Virus record (IMG/VR): IMGVR_UViG_3300005288_000005
Location: 1 to 49,629 of that record
Origin: a virus
DNA length: 49,629 nucleotides
Reading direction: 5' to 3' (one strand)
The notes beneath the pieces were generated by a model. The model was not told the DNA's origin. It saw only the letters and a list, made by a program, of their open reading frames with translations, and did no database searches. The position numbers and the translations under genes were made by a program. Position 1 is the stretch's first letter. Each line of letters begins with the position of its first letter. Of this stretch, positions 3,619-49,629 are shown in pieces.

Positions 3619-4008
3619 ATGCCGACGTTAGAGCAGCTTAAGGAATTCCTGACCTCCATTGGCGTACCCTTGCCACCGGACTTCGTCCTTATCGCCTGGA
3701 TGGATATCGTAGCCGTGATTCAACCGTGCCTTGATGGCGCAGGCTACCCTGCATCCGTTCAGATGCTGATCTATCTCTACCTGCTAAGCCTGTACGGCAT
3801 CGTGGCCGGAGACAAGTACATCTCAAGCCAAACCGCACCGTCCGGCGCATCTCAGTCCTTCCGCTACAATAATCTGCAAGACAAGTATCGCGGGATGCTG
3901 AATGCGCTGAACCTGCTGGACACTTCCGGCTGTACTGATTCCGTGGTACCTGCAATGCCTGGACCGACTGCCGGCCTTTGGGTATCCACTGGCGGGAAGT
4001 GCTGCTGA
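3619..4008 (+). CDS. Head-tail connector/adaptor protein (DUF4054-like)
   Basis: ATG with AGGTGG 5 nt upstream. The track starts at GTG 3610. First gene of the connector block. Confidence 0.6.
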   Translation: MPTLEQLKEFLTSIGVPLPPDFVLIAWMDIVAVIQPCLDGAGYPASVQMLIYLYLLSLYGIVAGDKYISSQTAPSGASQSFRYNNLQDKYRGMLNALNLLDTSGCTDSVVPAMPGPTAGLWVSTGGKCC

Positions 4009-4220
4009 TGGCTAGTAATCGTGAATGCAGGCGCTGGAGTCGAATTGGCATTGCTGGCCGCGTCAAAGCTTTGCGCAAGGCTGATTTCGGTAATCTCGGT
4101 TGGTTTCCAGAGGCTAGACAAGCTAGATGGATGCCGCACCAAGATAGCCAGTGGAATAAAGACTTAACGCTATACGGCTGGCCTGATGCCAATCCGTATT
4201 ACATGATGATGGAGTCGTAA
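4008..4220 (+). CDS. Hypothetical 70-aa protein in the connector block
   Basis: TGATG coupling to the upstream gene. Internal ATG of the 80-aa track ORF. Confidence 0.5.
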   Translation: MASNRECRRWSRIGIAGRVKALRKADFGNLGWFPEARQARWMPHQDSQWNKDLTLYGWPDANPYYMMMES

Positions 4221-4221
4221 T

Positions 4222-4566
4222 ATGGCCTTCATGTCAGCGTGGTACATGATCGACACCGCGACTATCTACCCAAGGCTCGCAGAAGGCGACTGGGGCGGCG
4301 GCGTCACATATGGAACCCCCTACACAATCCTTTGCGGTCACGAAGGCGTATCGCGGCAATCACGGGACAAGGAAGGCGCTGAATTCGTGACTCGTGACGT
4401 GTATTACACGGGCGACACTCGACCCGCTTACTTGGACCGCATCGCATACGGAGATACAACCGCTCAAGCATGGGATGCCGTATCAGCCGCAGAGATCCGC
4501 AAGATTGCTCGTCATGGCATGTCGGCGTTTGGGTATGAGGATGAGTATGATTTGGAGACTGTTTGA
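4222..4566 (+). CDS. Head closure / head-tail joining protein (by position)
   Basis: 114 aa, tightly packed within the connector block. Confidence 0.5.
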   Translation: MAFMSAWYMIDTATIYPRLAEGDWGGGVTYGTPYTILCGHEGVSRQSRDKEGAEFVTRDVYYTGDTRPAYLDRIAYGDTTAQAWDAVSAAEIRKIARHGMSAFGYEDEYDLETV

Positions 4567-4979
4567 TGCCGGTTAAGGGGTTGAAGGAGGTAAGGCAGCA
4601 GCTTAAAAAGGAGCTGGCCAATATTAGCGGGACTCTTACAGAGAGAGCGCTGCTTGAGGTTCTTATCGTCGCGTCTGGATTCGCCGCCACCATGACGCCA
4701 ATCGATACCGGTAATTTGATCGGCAGTCAGTTCCGTAGAGTAGAAACATCCGGAACAAAGGTTAAGGGAATCATGGGATATACAGCGGCCTATGCAGCAG
4801 CAGTTCATGACAAGCCTGGTACGCTTCTCGGGACAAGCACGCCACGCTCTAAATCAGATCCTTCACGCGGTAACGTTTGGGATCCGGATGCTGAGCCAGA
4901 ATTCTTGCGTAGAGCATTTGAAGATCCAGATGCTCGCGCCGACATTGATGCTGTAATCAAAAGGCGCATGAAAATCTAA
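4566..4979 (+). CDS. Tail completion protein, HK97 gp10-like
   Basis: TGATG coupling. A DTGNL motif is typical of the gp10 family. Confidence 0.65.
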   Translation: MPVKGLKEVRQQLKKELANISGTLTERALLEVLIVASGFAATMTPIDTGNLIGSQFRRVETSGTKVKGIMGYTAAYAAAVHDKPGTLLGTSTPRSKSDPSRGNVWDPDAEPEFLRRAFEDPDARADIDAVIKRRMKI

Positions 4980-5365
4980 TGAGCCACACACCAATCAATC
5001 TATTCCGCGACTGGCTAGAGGCTTACGTTTCGACTGCCGGCTACAAGTTAAGCAAGGGGATGTGGGAAGAGGCCAACAATGCTGGTAATAAGTTCGTAGC
5101 CGTCTGGTCGAACTCTGGCCGCTCGCCAAATGGTGACGTTGAGTATCCAGCTATCCGCGTAATCGTGACCGGCAGAGCTAATGGTAGAGCGCTTGGAGAC
5201 GTAGAACCGACTGAACTGTTCGCTCAGTTGCTTATCGATACTGCTATCGAACACTTCTCAACTAGCTGCATGTTCAATATTCGCCCGCTGGGAAGTATTC
5301 AAGGGCCGTACTACACAGAAACCAACAGACCGTGGCTAGAAATTAACTTCGAGCTGGCATGTTAA
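4979..5365 (+). CDS. Tail terminator-like protein (by position)
   Basis: TAATG coupling. 128 aa, immediately upstream of the tube protein gene. Confidence 0.5.
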   Translation: MSHTPINLFRDWLEAYVSTAGYKLSKGMWEEANNAGNKFVAVWSNSGRSPNGDVEYPAIRVIVTGRANGRALGDVEPTELFAQLLIDTAIEHFSTSCMFNIRPLGSIQGPYYTETNRPWLEINFELAC

Positions 5366-20224: not shown

Positions 20225-20345
20225 TCTGGAAGGCGTAACAGGGAAGGATGCGCTGACTGCACTGACTGAGTGGGGTGCGGCGCTTAGAGAGTGCTCTGAG
20301 CGGCAGAAGGCCTTGGCTTCCGCTGTTTCCGGCTCAAATCAATAG
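20070..20345 (+). CDS. Rz1: o-spanin (Rz1-like lipoprotein), overlapped type
   Basis: Starts inside Rz in the +1 frame. Signal peptide with lipobox LTAC. Confidence 0.75.
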   Translation: MKALSSVSAKRLLSCLSIAIFASTLTACSSQTTQRTGVSQASLLTPCRIPSDLEGVTGKDALTALTEWGAALRECSERQKALASAVSGSNQ

Positions 20346-20841
20346 AACCCCAAGGATTATGCTTCGGAGGAACCGGCTTAACCCTCTTGAAGTCTACCGA
20401 GAATCCTCGAAGCTTCATCCACATACGCATGCACGTTACATTATTCCATCCGATGTGATGAGCAACCTGGGTTGCAGTATGCGAGCCTGCCATCGAGCGA
20501 ATCACATCAATAGCCTTGGAGCCGGTTCTTTTTTCATAAGCACCAGCCGCGCTATTGTCGTTCGCAATCTTGGCAATTGAAATGTTCTTCTTCGCTTCTT
20601 CTGTCTTGGCAGCGATTGCAACAAAGGCGCTGCTCGGATTGCATCTAGACCGATAAGCGCTGATATGCTCGATACAACGGATTGACACATCAAACTTTTC
20701 AGCGAGCGCAGCACAGCTAGCAATTGAGTTGATCCGCGCAATCTCTTCCTTTTTCCACTCAATCAGCTGCCTGATCTGCTCTACGTCTTCATCAGTAAGC
20801 TTTGCGTTTGGGTGATTCTCTCCTCGGGCGCGACTAACCAT
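20284..20841 (-). CDS. Multi-HTH DNA-binding protein (185 aa)
   Basis: TAATG coupling. The N-terminal 55 aa are paralogous to the 61-aa protein upstream. A second HTH-like segment lies near the C-terminus. Confidence 0.65.
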   Translation of the reverse strand: MVSRARGENHPNAKLTDEDVEQIRQLIEWKKEEIARINSIASCAALAEKFDVSIRCIEHISAYRSRCNPSSAFVAIAAKTEEAKKNISIAKIANDNSAAGAYEKRTGSKAIDVIRSMAGSHTATQVAHHIGWNNVTCMRMWMKLRGFSVDFKRVKPVPPKHNPWGSIDLSRKQRKPRPSAAQSTL

Positions 20842-21026
20842 TACCAAGTCCTATAGTTGACGACGTGAGAGATGCAAGTAACGGATACGCCGAATTTCTC
20901 AGCTAGCGCCTTATTCCCCGCAATCGAATGAATTCGCTCAATCTCCGCCTTCTTCCACTCGTAAAGCTCGCGGATCTGCTCGGCGTCTTCGTGCGTGATT
21001 TTTGCGTTGTGGTTTAGTTTTCTCAT
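20841..21026 (-). CDS. Small HTH DNA-binding protein (61 aa)
   Basis: GGAGG SD. NAKITHEDAEQIRELYEWKK...ALAEKFGVSVTCISHVVNYRTW. Confidence 0.7.
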   Translation of the reverse strand: MRKLNHNAKITHEDAEQIRELYEWKKAEIERIHSIAGNKALAEKFGVSVTCISHVVNYRTW

Positions 21027-21028
21027 GA

Positions 21029-22249
21029 TTAAACCTCCATATCCTTAATGTTCCACTCTGCGCGACGGCGCTTCATAAGTTCGCAATACTTCTGGTAGGC
21101 TGCGCTCTTTGTCGGACTGAACCCAAGGCCCTTGCACCAGTAGTCGTTCTTCAGGAACGTCTTAACCACCTTGCGCCAGGTCGGAACCTTGCCGCGACTC
21201 TCAAGCGACTTATCCGCCAGATCCGGAATGCCATCAGGATAGCCGCGCTTACTCCACCACTTGAGGTAAACAGATAGTTTGTTGCGGTAATGCTCAGCAG
21301 TCGGGCGCGGCATAGTGCGCAGAATATGCTTAGCAAAACTCTCGAACGTGTGACCTTCAGGCAATGCAATGCTGTGATTGCCCATCACTGCGCCTTTCTC
21401 CTGGCTGTACATCTTGCCAGTGTTGGCCCCAGCGCATCGCAATACAACCTTTGCCCACATTGCAGGATCAACGATCTGATACAGCCACAGGCCTTTGCGC
21501 GCCTCATCACCGAACGGCTCGCAAATACGCATCTGGCTAATCTTCATGCCGGCCTGGTGCATGCGGTCATAAAGACGGTTGTAGTCGAGTCCGGTTTTGC
21601 CATGGAAGCGCCAAATGTCTTTGGTCTTCCAGTCGTAGATTGGGTAGATATTCCAGGCGATACCTTCGACTTGCGTTGTCCATTGCTTGCCTTGAAAGGT
21701 CGGTTTGTCGTCACGAGCGATGGCACGGAACCGGTTAAGGCTCTCGTCGGCGCGGATACCAACGAAGCAGGCGCAGGACTTGCCTTGTGCGTACCACTGT
21801 GCGAATGCAGGTGTGAATTCCTCGAACGGCATACCGGTGTAGTAGAACGGGAAATAGGATTCGTCGGTAATGCTCATCTTTTCAGGCTGACGAACCCAAA
21901 GTTCCGTCTTTGCTGGATCCCAGGCAGTCCACTCTGGTTCGATCTGGCTGCAAGCGTTCCAAGTTTTCATGGGAAGCGCTACCCAATACGGATCAATCAC
22001 GTCCGAGTACATCTCGAACATCTTTTTAGCGAAGTCGATAGTCAGGCCGATTTGGCATTCCCAATCGATCATCAGGACGCCAATCCGAACACCTCGAGCG
22101 CGAGCCTCTTGAGCAACCATGTGTAGCATCACTGTCGAGTCTTTGCCGGCGCTGAATGACAGATAGATGCGCTCAAAGTTATCGAACGTGAACGCAATCC
22201 TTTCCTTTGCGGCCTCGAATACGTCTAGACCTAATCCTCTTTTTGGCAT
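21029..22249 (-). CDS. PAPS-reductase-family PP-loop ATP pyrophosphatase with long C-terminal extension (IbrA-like)
   Basis: SFSAGKDS PP-loop motif near the N-terminus. 406 aa. Neighbours a ParB-like gene. Confidence 0.8.
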   Translation of the reverse strand: MPKRGLGLDVFEAAKERIAFTFDNFERIYLSFSAGKDSTVMLHMVAQEARARGVRIGVLMIDWECQIGLTIDFAKKMFEMYSDVIDPYWVALPMKTWNACSQIEPEWTAWDPAKTELWVRQPEKMSITDESYFPFYYTGMPFEEFTPAFAQWYAQGKSCACFVGIRADESLNRFRAIARDDKPTFQGKQWTTQVEGIAWNIYPIYDWKTKDIWRFHGKTGLDYNRLYDRMHQAGMKISQMRICEPFGDEARKGLWLYQIVDPAMWAKVVLRCAGANTGKMYSQEKGAVMGNHSIALPEGHTFESFAKHILRTMPRPTAEHYRNKLSVYLKWWSKRGYPDGIPDLADKSLESRGKVPTWRKVVKTFLKNDYWCKGLGFSPTKSAAYQKYCELMKRRRAEWNIKDMEV

Positions 22250-22626
22250 TTCAGTTCCACCCTCGTGAAATTCTTAGTCTTGCTTTTGATGGTGAAGCCT
22301 AGCGCCAGGAAAGCGCCAAGGCTTGCAGGTGTGCAGTTTGCCTTTAAGGCGGAGGGCTTGGCAAGCAGAATTCGCGCAAGCAATGCGGAAAATATGCCGT
22401 CTCTGCGCCACGCCGTTTTAACGTAGCAATCTGAAACAACGTTTCCGCGCAATGAGGCGAACCCGACCAAGGCGCCACAGACGTATGCAGCAAACCACTC
22501 CTTATCATCGTCGTCGTAAATGTGAATACCAACCTCCTGCGCGACATGGCGCGAACCGAAGTAAGGCCCCATCAGCCGATAGAAGTCCTTATTTTCGCGA
22601 GACAAGCTTAGGATTTGCACGTTCAA
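22231..22626 (-). CDS. GNAT-like acetyltransferase (131 aa)
   Basis: TTG start with GGAGGG 6 nt upstream. WRRDGIFSALL resembles GNAT motif A. Confidence 0.6.
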   Translation of the reverse strand: MNVQILSLSRENKDFYRLMGPYFGSRHVAQEVGIHIYDDDDKEWFAAYVCGALVGFASLRGNVVSDCYVKTAWRRDGIFSALLARILLAKPSALKANCTPASLGAFLALGFTIKSKTKNFTRVELKCQKED

Positions 22627-22996
22627 AGCGATCCCTCCATTCGATGATTGCGATGTCTGCCGCCAGATTCGCTAACTCTTGCTGTTCTTCAGCCATCATC
22701 CGCCAGCCTAGCCGCGTCAGATCCTCGCTAGCGCCGTGATTCAAGTAGCAGGCAGCGTGCCCTATCCATGCCTGGTGATTAATCACTGTGGCGCTTAGGT
22801 TTACGTCGCAGCTATTCGGCCATTCGTCCAGCACAAGCAGGCACGACGACAGGAAGGCTTCGTAGTCGATCATCAGGTTAGCCGAGGCTTCTGGCATTCC
22901 CGTCCGATCTGCTGGCGGAAGAACCTTCCACATCATCCCTTCGTATTCCTCGCACTCAAGGTAGTGCCGGTAGACGCGCTTAAACCTTCGATTCAT
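22589..22996 (-). CDS. Hypothetical 135-aa protein inside the ParB/PAPS-reductase cassette
   Basis: ATG with GGAG 7 nt upstream. Overlaps both neighbouring genes. No family recognised. Confidence 0.65.
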   Translation of the reverse strand: MNRRFKRVYRHYLECEEYEGMMWKVLPPADRTGMPEASANLMIDYEAFLSSCLLVLDEWPNSCDVNLSATVINHQAWIGHAACYLNHGASEDLTRLGWRMMAEEQQELANLAADIAIIEWRDRFERANPKLVSRK

Positions 22997-23624
22997 CAAT
23001 CAGCTCCAACTCATCTGCTTCGTCAAACGATACGGCTTCCCATGCCTCGCTGAAATCCTCATCGCCAAACAGGCCGGCAAGGCCAGTCACTTGCTGCAAA
23101 CGCAGAACCTCGTCAGCGTCCATGCCCAATTCAGTAGAGATACGATCATCAGTCCAGAAGCGGCGCTTAAGCTCTACAACGATCTCAGACATGCTTTCGA
23201 CCTTGTGCGCACCACGAGCCCGGTTGTGGCGAATCGTCGCTGCCATGCGGTCGTTACGGTCTTGCTGGTCGGCTTTAAGCTCAACGATGGGTAGGTAGCC
23301 ATGCACGCGAGCGCTGATGGATGGCGATTCCTTGCCTACGCGGTGACGGTGGAATCCATCGATTACTTCAATGCCTTCGTTCGGCCAAGTAACAATCGGC
23401 TGCGTGTAGCCGTCCGACATAATCGAATGCTCTAGCAGCTTCATTTCTGGAGGCGCTACCGAGTTGGGGTTGTAGTCGTTTGCGTGAACGATGGTATTCG
23501 GAACCCAGCGAACGAAGTCTACTGGCTCGCTTGCGAACGGGCTGTGCTTGTGGATCTCGGCGCGAAGGCGATTGATTTCCTCTACGCGCTCTGCAAGCGG
23601 TAGTTCTGATAGGTAGTCGAACAT
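22980..23624 (-). CDS. ParB/Srx-fold N-terminal-domain protein (IbrB-like)
   Basis: IDGFHRHRV (DGxHR motif). AAGGAAG SD. 214 aa. Confidence 0.8.
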   Translation of the reverse strand: MFDYLSELPLAERVEEINRLRAEIHKHSPFASEPVDFVRWVPNTIVHANDYNPNSVAPPEMKLLEHSIMSDGYTQPIVTWPNEGIEVIDGFHRHRVGKESPSISARVHGYLPIVELKADQQDRNDRMAATIRHNRARGAHKVESMSEIVVELKRRFWTDDRISTELGMDADEVLRLQQVTGLAGLFGDEDFSEAWEAVSFDEADELELIDESKV

Positions 23625-23679
23625 TGATTCTTCCTTGTTGTGCGGGGGAGTAGCCCCTGGTTAGAGGGGCTTTTCTTGA

Positions 23680-24153
23680 TTAGGCGCCTAGCAGGTAGTG
23701 CGCAGGGGCAAACGGAATGTCATCCGAGAAGTTGTCTGGTGGAGCGGCTTGCTGACTAGGTTGCTGGCGCTGCTGTTGAGGCTTAGGCTGCGAGCTACCG
23801 CCGTCAGCAGGTTTGCCACCCAACAACTGCATAGTGCCCTGCATGTCAACCTTGATCTCAGTCGTATAGCGCTTAACTCCATCTTTCTCCCACTCACGAG
23901 TCTCAAGCTTGCCTTCGATGTAAATCTGAGAGCCCTTTCGGCAATACTCGCCAGCGATCTCGGCAACCTTGCCGAACATGACAACACGATGCCACTCTGT
24001 CTTCTCTTTCTTCTCGCCGGTCTGCTTGTCCTTCCATTGCTCACTAGTGGCGAGACTCAGGTTACACACTGCATTGCCATTAGTGAGATATTTCACTTCG
24101 GGATCTTGGCCCAAAGTGCCTACGAGGATTACTTTGTTTACGCCGCGAGCCAT
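23680..24153 (-). CDS. ssb: Single-stranded DNA-binding protein
   Basis: [22 protein letters not shown]... OB fold, Gln/Pro-rich linker, acidic tip DDIPF. Confidence 0.95.
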
Positions 24154-24716
24154 TATTGTGCCGCCTCTTGTGGATTTTTGATTTGTGCTTTCTGTTCGTC
24201 GGTCAATTTACCAGACTGCTCAACCTTTGCAATGATTTTTTCTGCTGTTGCTTTACCTTCTGCAATCAGCGCCAGCCATGCTGCCAGATTGTCGGCGAAT
24301 TTCTGCGCGTCGTAGTAAGCAATCTCCAGCTTCGAAAACCGATGCGCCTTACGCTTTCCGCGAGTCACGGTAAGCATCAGCTCGAAATCCTCTTGGATGT
24401 CGCTGAAGTGGCTGATGCGGATGCCGCCTACCTTCACACCACCGTAAACAACCTCCGGATCGCGGTATAGGGTAAGCGAGCGACCAACCCACGGATCTGG
24501 ATACTCGCCCCAAGCCGAGATGATTGCGCGGCGCATAGACAAGCAGGGCTTGTACGGACGACCTTCAAAGCCATCAGTATAGATGAATACCGGGTTTTCC
24601 TTGTTGCCGCGTGTCACCTGAGTAACCTTGACCGTGCGCGGACATGAGATCAGGTCGTCCGCATTCGCTTGATCGGTCTTAGGAATGATTGTGTTTGCGA
24701 AACTTTCACCGCTCAT
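24153..24716 (-). CDS. Hypothetical 187-aa protein of the recombination module
   Basis: TAATG/ATGA coupling between the exonuclease and SSB genes. No family recognised with confidence. Confidence 0.65.
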
Positions 24717-48248: not shown

Positions 48249-49574
48249 ATGAAAAAGACTCGTGTAAATATCCTGTCGGCGGTTAACGCTGACTCGATCA
48301 AGATTGAGCGCACGGAGGTGGCCGGAGAGAAGTACGCGGTTATCAAGAATGTGCTGTGGATGAAGGACAACATTGTTTTAAACGATGGCCTGTACTCTTC
48401 GTCTGAGAATGCCAAGGGTTATGCCTCAATGGATGGCCGCGTCATGCCATTCGGTCATCCGGAAGTCAACGGCCAATACGTCGCTATCAGCTCGCTAGAC
48501 AGCGCGGATGTTGCTGTAGCACTAGGAAAGCACTACGGTGGCGTACACGCTCAGAACGTGCGACAGGCTGGCGAAGAGTACTTCGCTGACGTGATGATCA
48601 ACGAGCGAGTTGCCAAGTCCCATCCAGATGGCGAAATGCTGCTTAACTGGGTTGGAAAGGCTGAGGATTATCAGGTTAACGGTGCAGCTAAGCCAGATCC
48701 GGTGCATATGTCTACCGGCCTGATGACTGCTCGCGTCAATGCTAAAGGCGAGTCTCGCGGCAAGTCGTATAGCTGGATCGCCACTCAGCAGTCCTATGAC
48801 CACCTGGCAATCCTGTTCCACGAGCAAGGCGCTGGAGGTGATGAGGTTGCAATCGCGGTTAACTGCGAGTCGGTGATTAACTCTGTGCTGCCAACCGTCA
48901 ACGAAGACGCCCTAGACGACTCATACGGCGAGAAACTTGCCATCTTGAGCGAGGCAGTAAAAGAGCGATTCGCAACATCTGACTCTTACGCATACGTGCA
49001 AGACTTCGATGATCGAGCGCTTGTGTACTGCACTCCAGAAGGCATGTATTCAATCGACTACCACTTTGAAGGCGACAATCCGATTCTAACTGGCGAGGCT
49101 CGTACAGTAGTTGCGGAAACGTCTTATAAGGTGAAAACCAATACGCTCATGGCCAACTTAAAGGCCATGGTACAATTGTTCAGTACCAAACCTAAACCGC
49201 CTGTACAGGCAAATGTAATTGAGGAAGTAGATATGACTCCTGAAGCAGTTCAGGCCATCGTAGACAAAGCGCTTGAGGCTACTAATGCTTCCCTCGCTAC
49301 TGTGCAGGCCGAAAACGTAAAACTCAAGGCAGATGTGTTGGCTGCAAATGCCGCCATTACTGCCAATGCCGAAGCCGGCCTGAAAGACAAGCGCGCCGCA
49401 GTAGCCAAAGTGCATGGCGAAGTAGTTGCTAATGCGCTGAATGGCGAAGCTCTGGAAGCAATGTTCGCTAGCGTTCAAACCGCTGCCGGCCTCGTATCTG
49501 GCGCACCAGCAACCAACGTAAAAGACGAGTTCGAAGGCTACAGCCTGAACTCCGCTGATCAGGAGGCCAAATAA
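48249..49574 (+). CDS. Prohead protease/scaffold-like protein (DUF2213-like by recollection)
   Basis: 441 aa. Ala-rich coiled-coil C-terminal third. Immediately upstream of the small head protein and capsid genes across the junction. Confidence 0.6.
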   Translation: MKKTRVNILSAVNADSIKIERTEVAGEKYAVIKNVLWMKDNIVLNDGLYSSSENAKGYASMDGRVMPFGHPEVNGQYVAISSLDSADVAVALGKHYGGVHAQNVRQAGEEYFADVMINERVAKSHPDGEMLLNWVGKAEDYQVNGAAKPDPVHMSTGLMTARVNAKGESRGKSYSWIATQQSYDHLAILFHEQGAGGDEVAIAVNCESVINSVLPTVNEDALDDSYGEKLAILSEAVKERFATSDSYAYVQDFDDRALVYCTPEGMYSIDYHFEGDNPILTGEARTVVAETSYKVKTNTLMANLKAMVQLFSTKPKPPVQANVIEEVDMTPEAVQAIVDKALEATNASLATVQAENVKLKADVLAANAAITANAEAGLKDKRAAVAKVHGEVVANALNGEALEAMFASVQTAAGLVSGAPATNVKDEFEGYSLNSADQEAK

Positions 49575-49629
49575 TGGCTAACGTTATCTGGCGTGGTCCT
49601 GTGCATTTGGCACAGCCTGATTCGCGCAC
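49520..49629. repeat. Terminal overlap copy 2 (identical to 1..110)
   Basis: Verbatim repeat of the window start. Confidence 0.95.

Follow-up and report, generated by a model that had tools for sequence, protein, structure and literature searches.

We examine here a group of genes on the minus strand of a phage genome from a JGI metagenome, IMG/VR record IMGVR_UViG_3300005288_000005 (positions 1 to 49,629; this whole stretch of 49,629 nucleotides is called the window below). Four of them, referred to as the cassette, encode an IbrB-like protein with a ParB/Srx domain, a protein that we call X, a GNAT-like acetyltransferase, and an IbrA-like enzyme of the PAPS-reductase family. Two further genes encode small proteins resembling helix-turn-helix (HTH) proteins. 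Judged by comparison with related loci, the cassette is an extended form of the known IbrAB kind of gene pair, with X and a set of apparently swappable tailoring enzymes that we have not found described elsewhere. The features are as follows (SSB: single-stranded DNA-binding protein):

22980-23624, minus strand: IbrB-like protein, 214 amino acids
22589-22999, minus strand: X, 136 amino acids (135 from an ATG one codon in)
22231-22626, minus strand: GNAT, 131 amino acids
21029-22249, minus strand: IbrA-like protein, 406 amino acids
20841-21026, minus strand: small HTH-like protein, 61 amino acids
20284-20847, minus strand: large HTH-like protein, 187 amino acids
23652-23671, no strand assigned: GC-rich hairpin with a 7-bp stem, inside the 55-nt spacer that separates the SSB gene from ibrB, past the SSB stop codon and ahead of the ribosome-binding site of ibrB

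The original prediction, made from the letters of the window alone, described six minus-strand genes chained by overlaps of 1-38 nt. All six open reading frames (ORFs) are present, and the three motifs that it quoted (IDGFHRHRV, WRRDGIFSALL, and SFSAGKDS) are found in the translations. The overlaps amount to 20 nt (or 17) for ibrB and X, 38 nt for X and GNAT, and 19 nt for GNAT and ibrA. The chain is broken, however, after ibrA, where a 2-nt spacer precedes the gene of the 61-amino-acid protein; the last two genes overlap by 1 nt at a TAATG junction, or by 7 nt if a TTG start is used. Gene ibrB lies 731 nt upstream of ibrA in the same operon and is co-directional with it.

The four cassette proteins

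The IbrA-like protein was described as a PP-loop enzyme of the PAPS-reductase family, 406 amino acids long, and profile searches agree with this. It matches PAPS_reduct (Pfam: PF01507) with an E-value of 8.8e-16 (58.8 bits; cut-off 22.5) and DUF3440 (PF11922) with 3.3e-35 (121.9 bits; cut-off 25), and it matches phrog_2302 at 1.4e-89 as against only 7e-18 for phrog_424. An N-terminal PP-loop domain with the SFSAGKDS motif is followed by a helical C-terminal DUF3440 region ending in an invariant KND module. The protein is 81% identical to a protein of Pseudomonas phage Amjad_SA and 50% identical over its full length to the annotated IbrA of Escherichia phage PhiR5_2. In the AlphaFold model the N-terminal domain is confident and the helical DUF3440 region poor (predicted local distance difference test, pLDDT, 30-80). 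Foldseek places the N-terminal domain nearest to CysH (6vpu, 2e-7), followed by APS reductase, CysD, and FMN adenylyltransferase; TtuA, NcsA, and TilS are weaker matches, and DndC falls outside the top 50. A sequence search of the PDB with IbrA, IbrB, and GNAT finds no close solved structure. The family is large: there are at least 7,713 IbrA clusters at 90% identity, the viral contigs with a member number in the hundreds, and E. coli K-12 has paralogues.

What kind of chemistry might this enzyme perform? In a set of 151 distinct IbrA homologues, the PP-loop residues S33, G35, K36, D37, and S38 (S-x-G-K-D-S) are invariant throughout, as are D62, E64, E169, S170, R173, D206, R241, N368, and D369. 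None of the cysteines is conserved throughout: 76 of the 151 homologues have C243 and 144 have C372, and there is no cysteine cluster. The comparison with CysH led us to consider Cys243 as a catalytic residue, an idea that we rejected since half of the family has Ala or Asp at that site. Both CysH equivalog models score below their cut-offs (TIGR02057, 35.1 vs 254.2 bits; NF002537, 32.9 vs 154 bits), and the ECGLH catalytic motif of CysH is absent from the translation. The DndC model TIGR03183 gives 14 bits against a cut-off of 290.4. Among the PADLOC models, DndC (19 bits) and BrxP (18 bits) give partial matches only, with E-values of about 1e-4, and PADLOC assigns none of the cassette proteins to a defence system. 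Because the PP-loop is invariant, the DndC and CysH cut-offs are failed, and no cysteine is invariant, these alignments strongly imply that IbrA cleaves ATP between the alpha and beta phosphates, i.e., that it adenylates its target. They do not imply a DndC-like route through an iron-sulfur (Fe-S) site or persulfide, nor a CysH-like thiosulfonate route.

The IbrB-like protein has a ParB/Srx N-terminal domain, then an HTH-like segment (ELGM..DEVLRL.Q..GL), and an acidic tail. It matches phrog_2159 at 6e-68 and is 49% identical to the annotated IbrB of phage PhiR5_2. The Pfam model ParB_N stays below its cut-off with the single sequence (17.9 vs 26.3 bits). A profile of 27 IbrB sequences matches Helicobacter pylori ParB (4umk) at 1e-4, with DGFHR aligned on GERR, and both DGFHR and RHNRARG are invariant in IbrB homologues. 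The PHROG and 4umk matches uphold the ParB/Srx fold that had been proposed for the first gene. The proposed IbrB/IbrA-like architecture likewise stands, given the 49-50% identity of the two proteins to annotated IbrB and IbrA and their Pfam and PHROG matches. Against the model of canonical partition ParB proteins, TIGR00180, the score is 14.1 bits with a cut-off of 58.45, and none of the neighbouring genes scanned matches a ParA family.

The AlphaFold2 model of X (pLDDT 96) is all-alpha, with seven helices, and the core of the family is described by the motif NHQAWIGHAAC..NHGA.EDLTR..WR....QQ..AN.AAD.AI..W. X matches nothing in Pfam, PHROGs, NCBIfam, or PADLOC; with the predicted structure, Foldseek finds no PDB match and one unnamed homologue in BFVD. 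The family is nevertheless sizeable, with 745 clusters at 50% identity (575 at E <= 1e-10) in a profile search of 1.84 billion representatives. Among isolated phages, X is encoded by Amjad_SA, Gaia/Nebkiss, and XCL1123. When a profile of the close X clade was searched against 185,579 bacterial species genomes, using narrow patterns, a single contig of a metagenome-assembled genome (MAG) was found.

The GNAT-like fold of the third gene product, also part of the original prediction, is supported by a match to Acetyltransf_10 (PF13673) above the cut-off (2.6e-5; 24.6 vs 23.6 bits) and by profile matches to 137 GNAT sequences in the PDB, the best being 6wqb (9e-8). The acyl-CoA motif R-x-x-G lies in WRRDGIF, of which R74 and G77 are conserved, and distant members have the canonical form RNKGIG. 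The N-terminal motif FY..MGP.FGSR....E.G...YDD.DK.W is specific to the family. We find 33 clusters of this family, and every member whose contig was examined sits in an IbrA cassette; in isolated phages no homologue was found. None of 30 family members matches EctA in NCBIfam at E <= 0.1.

Cassette composition across phages

We collected 80 IMG/VR loci with IbrA relatives of 54-96% identity (at least 470 exist), giving 89 loci in all, and ran a profile of each cassette protein against the ORFs of all six frames. Another 80 IMG/VR loci, from a distant IbrA clade, served as a second sample. In the first set, IbrB is found in 86 of 89 loci, X in 68, and GNAT in 16. The most frequent order is IbrB, X, IbrA (42 loci), followed by the canonical IbrA, IbrB (17 loci), the order of the window, IbrB, X, GNAT, IbrA (11 loci), and X, IbrA, IbrB (10 loci). 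X lies directly upstream of ibrA except in the 11-12 loci with a GNAT gene between them; a small ORF for the C-terminal part of DUF3440 sometimes separates the two in the same way. In the second sample, 67 of the 80 loci have IbrB, 20 have X, 11 have GNAT, and eight have an EctC-like cupin. The genes next to the cassettes encode SSB, exonucleases, helicases, DnaB, a 5'-3' exonuclease, and, once, Mom. L156 and L158 (3977-5278 and 6817-8026) show two full-length IbrA paralogues, of 433 and 402 amino acids, within a single locus, with X directly preceding the second.

The same cassette is found behind different replication modules in loci L004 and L005, and it therefore appears to move as a module. 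Judged by gene order, the survey shows that a three-gene core of IbrB, X, and IbrA travels as a unit between unrelated phage backbones. A core of four genes had been expected; the survey reduces it to three, since GNAT is present in only 16 of the 89 loci and is absent from Amjad_SA. In its 16 loci the GNAT gene takes four different cassette positions, with single loci having it after ibrA, between ibrA and ibrB, or before X.

Several gene fusions connect these proteins. P0087, seen on two contigs from two sequencing runs, is a fusion of X and GNAT in the order IbrB, X::GNAT, IbrA. Both X and GNAT co-occur with IbrAB in many unrelated backbones; this, together with the fusion, shows them, as far as gene context can, to be real functional companions of the pair. 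In the distant IbrA clade, X is followed by a stand-alone ORF of 79-124 amino acids that matches the last approximately 45 residues of DUF3440, i.e., the invariant KND module (motif PSWK...LLKND...LG). Examples of this stand-alone module include gp107 of Mycobacterium phage Gaia (L096:4744-4944) and further cases among loci L100-L178. The same module is fused to X in P0211 and to the N-terminus of a full-length IbrA in L102 and L103. We considered that P0211 might be a deletion remnant and dropped the idea, as stand-alone and N-terminally fused copies of the module adjoin X in 20 other loci. Distant members of the X family, picked by length (P0107, P0196, and P0208), all adjoin genes for PAPS_reduct+DUF3440 and ParB proteins. 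Because gene fusions tie X, GNAT, and the C-terminal part of DUF3440 together, X is best described as a dedicated subunit, one that accompanies the module at the C-terminus of IbrA.

In Gaia and in Pseudoalteromonas phage XCL1123, the accessory slot is taken by a cupin of the ectoine-synthase family (PF06339; 1e-32 and 2e-35). Gaia gp104 (L096:3106-4005) is a fusion of this EctC-like cupin to ParB (Ectoine_synth, 1.3e-32), and in XCL1123 the cupin (L097:3131-3523) is encoded beside the ParB-like gene. EctC-like cupins are found in just five of 50,697 phage records (INPHARED). In all four annotated ones (XCL1123, Nebkiss, and two of Gaia) the gene adjoins a PAPS-reductase gene; the fifth record is a gut contig without annotation. 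The distribution across loci thus shows GNAT, as a predicted enzyme, to be an optional accessory and one of at least two interchangeable accessory enzymes.

One further locus, L098, with the order IbrB, X::GNAT, IbrA, has a Mom-family gene (PF25680; 6613-7224) 1.5 kb downstream and a faint Nmad5 match upstream (1021-1506). The phage in question may combine several functions in DNA modification.

Known relatives, proposed mechanism, and alternatives

The E. coli IbrAB pairs (the IbrAB island, copies in prophages, of which PhiR5_2 is an example, and the paralogues YbdN/YbdM of K-12) have the same combination of a PAPS_reduct+DUF3440 protein beside a ParB_N+HTH protein, encoded by adjacent and co-directional genes. 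The cassette differs from them in its inverted order, with ibrB first, and in the X and GNAT genes that lie between; loci of the E. coli type (such as L002 and L003; 17 of the 89) are without X and GNAT. In protein similarity the closest isolate is Amjad_SA (OP917824), whose genes 62-60 have the same order of IbrB, X, and IbrA, with IbrA 81% and X 52% identical. In contrast to the window, Amjad_SA has no GNAT and no HTH paralogues, and a gene resembling superfamily 2 helicases follows ibrA; all of these genes bear the annotation "hypothetical." Just upstream of the IbrB gene, Amjad_SA also encodes another ParB-like protein, of canonical appearance (L001:4113-5003). In Gaia (gp103-gp107) and XCL1123, the genes for IbrA, ParB, and X are also clustered, with X 33-35% identical. 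These two phages differ in the EctC-like cupin that replaces GNAT and in the position of X, which lies downstream and is followed by the stand-alone DUF3440 C-terminal module.

The pairing of a ParB/Srx protein with a PP-loop enzyme of the PAPS-reductase clade recalls DndB and DndC, and the original prediction compared IbrA with the modifying subunits DndC, SspD, and BrxP. This analogy turns out to be weak. The DndC score of IbrA is far below the cut-off, its structure is nearest to CysH, CysD, and FMN adenylyltransferase, with DndC outside the top 50, and the 151 homologues have no conserved Fe-S or persulfide cysteines. Scans of the six proteins with Pfam, NCBIfam, and PADLOC find none of the partners DndA/IscS, DndD, DndE, SspB, SspC, or the BREX core. 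Since both the DndC and CysH cut-offs are failed and no cysteine is invariant, phosphorothioation is a poor model for the cassette. Two phage proteins offer more distant comparisons. The PAPS::Dam fusion of a vibriophage (bioRxiv 10.1101/2021.05.05.442762) is likewise a phage PAPS-domain protein from a variable early region, with a demonstrated anti-defence role, but it belongs to another family, is fused to a methyltransferase, and has no DUF3440, ParB, X, or GNAT. Mom of phage Mu is a GNAT-fold enzyme that hypermodifies phage DNA; it has no detectable sequence relationship to the cassette GNAT (hhalign probability 0.2%).

A core that stays the same while enzymes of the small-molecule type are exchanged around it, some of them as fusions with core subunits, is typical of a pathway for biosynthesis or modification, not of a regulator. 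DNA suggests itself as the target because the neighbourhood is one of replication and recombination and because the partner is a ParB protein. The reading that we favour, tentatively and at somewhat less than even confidence, is that the cassette encodes an ATP-dependent, DNA-targeted modification complex with swappable tailoring enzymes. IbrB would use its HTH and its nucleotide-binding ParB/Srx domain to load onto the phage DNA early in replication, and would recruit IbrA. The PP-loop of IbrA would split ATP and adenylate a target oxygen, either a base carbonyl or a backbone phosphate. AMP would then be displaced by a nucleophile, probably a small molecule that carries an amine, since a sulfur relay would need a conserved cysteine or an Fe-S site and neither is present. 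X might act as a stoichiometric adaptor that binds DUF3440 at its C-terminal KND module. GNAT would N-acylate the installed group, while the EctC-like cupin of other lineages would dehydrate or cyclise it instead. The likely pay-off would be the marking or protection of phage DNA against host restriction.

A bolder and rather unlikely version makes IbrA, IbrB, and X a sulfur-free DNA hypermodification machine that attaches an amine metabolite, such as an amino acid or diamine, which is then acylated by GNAT or cyclised by the EctC-like cupin. If this were true, the cassettes would give a family of previously unknown DNA adducts and the missing biochemistry of E. coli IbrAB and YbdNM.

Several observations weigh against a DNA-modification complex. 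IbrA/IbrB pairs occur without X, GNAT, or cupin in 17 of the 89 loci and in 35 of the 80 loci of the distant clade. In the full-text literature, we found no biochemical study of IbrA, IbrB, YbdN, YbdM, or DUF3440 and no experiment that ties any IbrA/IbrB protein to nucleic-acid modification. To our knowledge, the only described phenotype of IbrAB is the activation of eib gene expression in E. coli. A search near the cassette for a parS-like repeat or palindrome that could serve as a loading site for IbrB gives only short repeats at chance level. The IbrA model has low confidence in its DUF3440 part, and the adaptor role of X is a guess, because X has no recognisable fold relative. GNAT, finally, could acetylate a protein, because its matches are generic small-molecule and protein N-acetyltransferases.

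This last point leads to the strongest of the alternatives, which we still regard as unlikely: an anti-defence function that leaves phage DNA unmodified. The complex would adenylate or acylate a host defence protein, a signalling nucleotide, or the phosphorothioation machinery, and in this way block host systems, for example Dnd, Ssp, or type 4 BREX. The cassette moves from one backbone to another and lies at the distal end of the early leftward operon, a position typical of accessory and anti-defence genes. PAPS reductases occur in Aca-regulated anti-defence operons (PMC13551039), and the vibriophage PAPS::Dam protein gives escape from host Dnd. That precedent, however, is of another family, the phrog_424 type, to which IbrA is far less similar than to phrog_2302. 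Furthermore, the ParB/HTH partner, which is obligatory, speaks for DNA-tethered chemistry, as does the EctC::ParB fusion, and the proteins match no PADLOC or anti-defence family.

A purely regulatory pair is less probable again. In that case the two proteins would control transcription in the phage or the host, IbrB as an NTP switch that binds DNA and IbrA as its cofactor, and there would be no covalent change to a nucleic acid. Databases name the IbrA/IbrB family "co-activators of prophage gene expression," and the E. coli ybdNM genes are repressed by YbdO, a dedicated LysR repressor (PMC9068703). DndB, itself a ParB/Srx protein, acts as a transcriptional regulator, and IbrB has its HTH-like segment. 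Yet a regulator needs neither a PP-loop active site that is invariant in all 151 homologues nor recurrent accessory enzymes (GNAT, the EctC-like cupin) fused to its subunits.

The chances are slight that the PP-loop enzyme modifies an RNA base, in the manner of TilS, ThiI, or TtuA, with GNAT adding an acyl group. Many PP-loop enzymes do act on tRNA, the weaker structural matches of IbrA include three such candidates (TtuA, NcsA, and TilS), and GNAT enzymes have tRNA among the substrates that they acetylate. The nearest structural relatives of IbrA are, however, not tRNA enzymes, and its obligatory partner is a DNA-binding ParB/HTH protein. The phage, moreover, is without tRNA genes: none was found across window positions 1-49629, where no tmRNA gene and, genome-wide, no Rfam family at gathering score were found either. 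The neighbouring genes belong to DNA replication and recombination.

We give even less credit to an exclusion or defence effector in which the PAPS-reductase/ParB module attacks the DNA of competing phages. A preprint of 2026 counts among its candidate defence operons clusters of a nucleoid-associated protein and a PAPS reductase together with Arc and ParBc (10.64898/2026.04.06.716658). The cassette, in contrast, is read from an early lytic operon, has no PADLOC match beyond the weak similarity to DndC and BrxP, and contains an X whose close clade is nearly absent from the bacterial species genomes searched (one MAG contig, with narrow patterns). Least credible of all is a sulfur-assimilation auxiliary metabolic gene, a viral cysH, as the Pfam name and virome papers annotating such genes in this way (PMC12323421) would have it; the CysH scores, the missing ECGLH motif and invariant cysteine, the retained ATP-type PP-loop, and the ParB partner in 86 of 89 loci all speak against it.

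IbrA/IbrB pairs are very common, yet we found no described enzymatic function for them; the comparative-genomic papers on Dnd and BREX do not mention IbrAB, and the survey of ParB folds does not cover them. The dedicated third subunit without a known fold, the interchangeable enzymes, and the gene fusions suggest that these pairs are not simple regulators but form the core of an enzyme complex. Should the product of the proposed modification complex be a new DNA mark, it would bear on phage escape from restriction and on DNA-labelling tools, and it would affect the widespread annotation of these genes in viromes as sulfur metabolism. Experiments could draw on three isolated phages (Amjad_SA, Gaia, and XCL1123) and on the cassettes of three and four genes.

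HTH-like paralogues and genome context

The two genes downstream of ibrA had been described as encoding paralogous HTH proteins. Their paralogy is clear, the 61-amino-acid protein being 63% identical over 60 residues to residues 8-67 of the 187-amino-acid protein (E-value 2e-23). Their HTH nature is suggested by weak matches only, to HTH_32 (0.055) and phrog_59 (3.8e-4), the latter placing the small protein on the C-terminal region of the HNH endonucleases of PHROG 59. The large protein combines the N-terminal module shared with the small one and a second, C-terminal module (..T..VA..IG......R.W.K.RG), and it matches no curated family in Pfam, PHROG, or NCBIfam. Contrary to the original prediction, which made them part of the cassette, the two proteins are lineage-specific and fall outside its conserved part: among the 89 loci, the paralogues are found in L010 only, with a distant homologue of the large protein (E-value about 1e-5) encoded upstream of ibrB in L004 and L005. 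L010 is also the closest relative of the window, with an IbrA that is 96% identical. Following ibrA it has three small genes and one large gene of this kind (3966-5099), compared with one of each in the window. This small gene family expands and contracts quickly.

The ends of the window carry an exact direct repeat of 110 nt (positions 1-110 are identical to 49520-49629), leaving 49,519 unique bases in the circularly assembled phage genome. The layout is lambdoid, with an O-like initiator, DnaB, terminase, portal, and tape measure. From the terminal repeat and this layout we take the window to be a complete, circularly assembled genome of the siphovirus type. Searches of the INPHARED records with the cassette and with each half of the window find no near-identical DNA, except for a terminase fragment of 166 nt.

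The cassette was correctly placed at the distal end of the early recombination/SSB operon. Upstream are genes for an exonuclease VIII-like protein (phrog_412, 1e-63), a phrog_11517 protein, and SSB (phrog_44, 4e-64), and downstream are convergent genes for an endolysin and an Rz-like spanin. No sigma-70-like promoter is found within 20284-23680, and ibrB has its own ribosome-binding site (AAGGAAG). In our reading, the cassette forms the distal portion of the leftward early operon. The hairpin ahead of ibrB lacks a U-tract on the coding (minus) strand and could serve in RNA stability or processing. The PHROG 11517 protein (187 amino acids; window 24153-24716) is encoded between the exonuclease and SSB genes, in the usual slot of a single-strand annealing protein.

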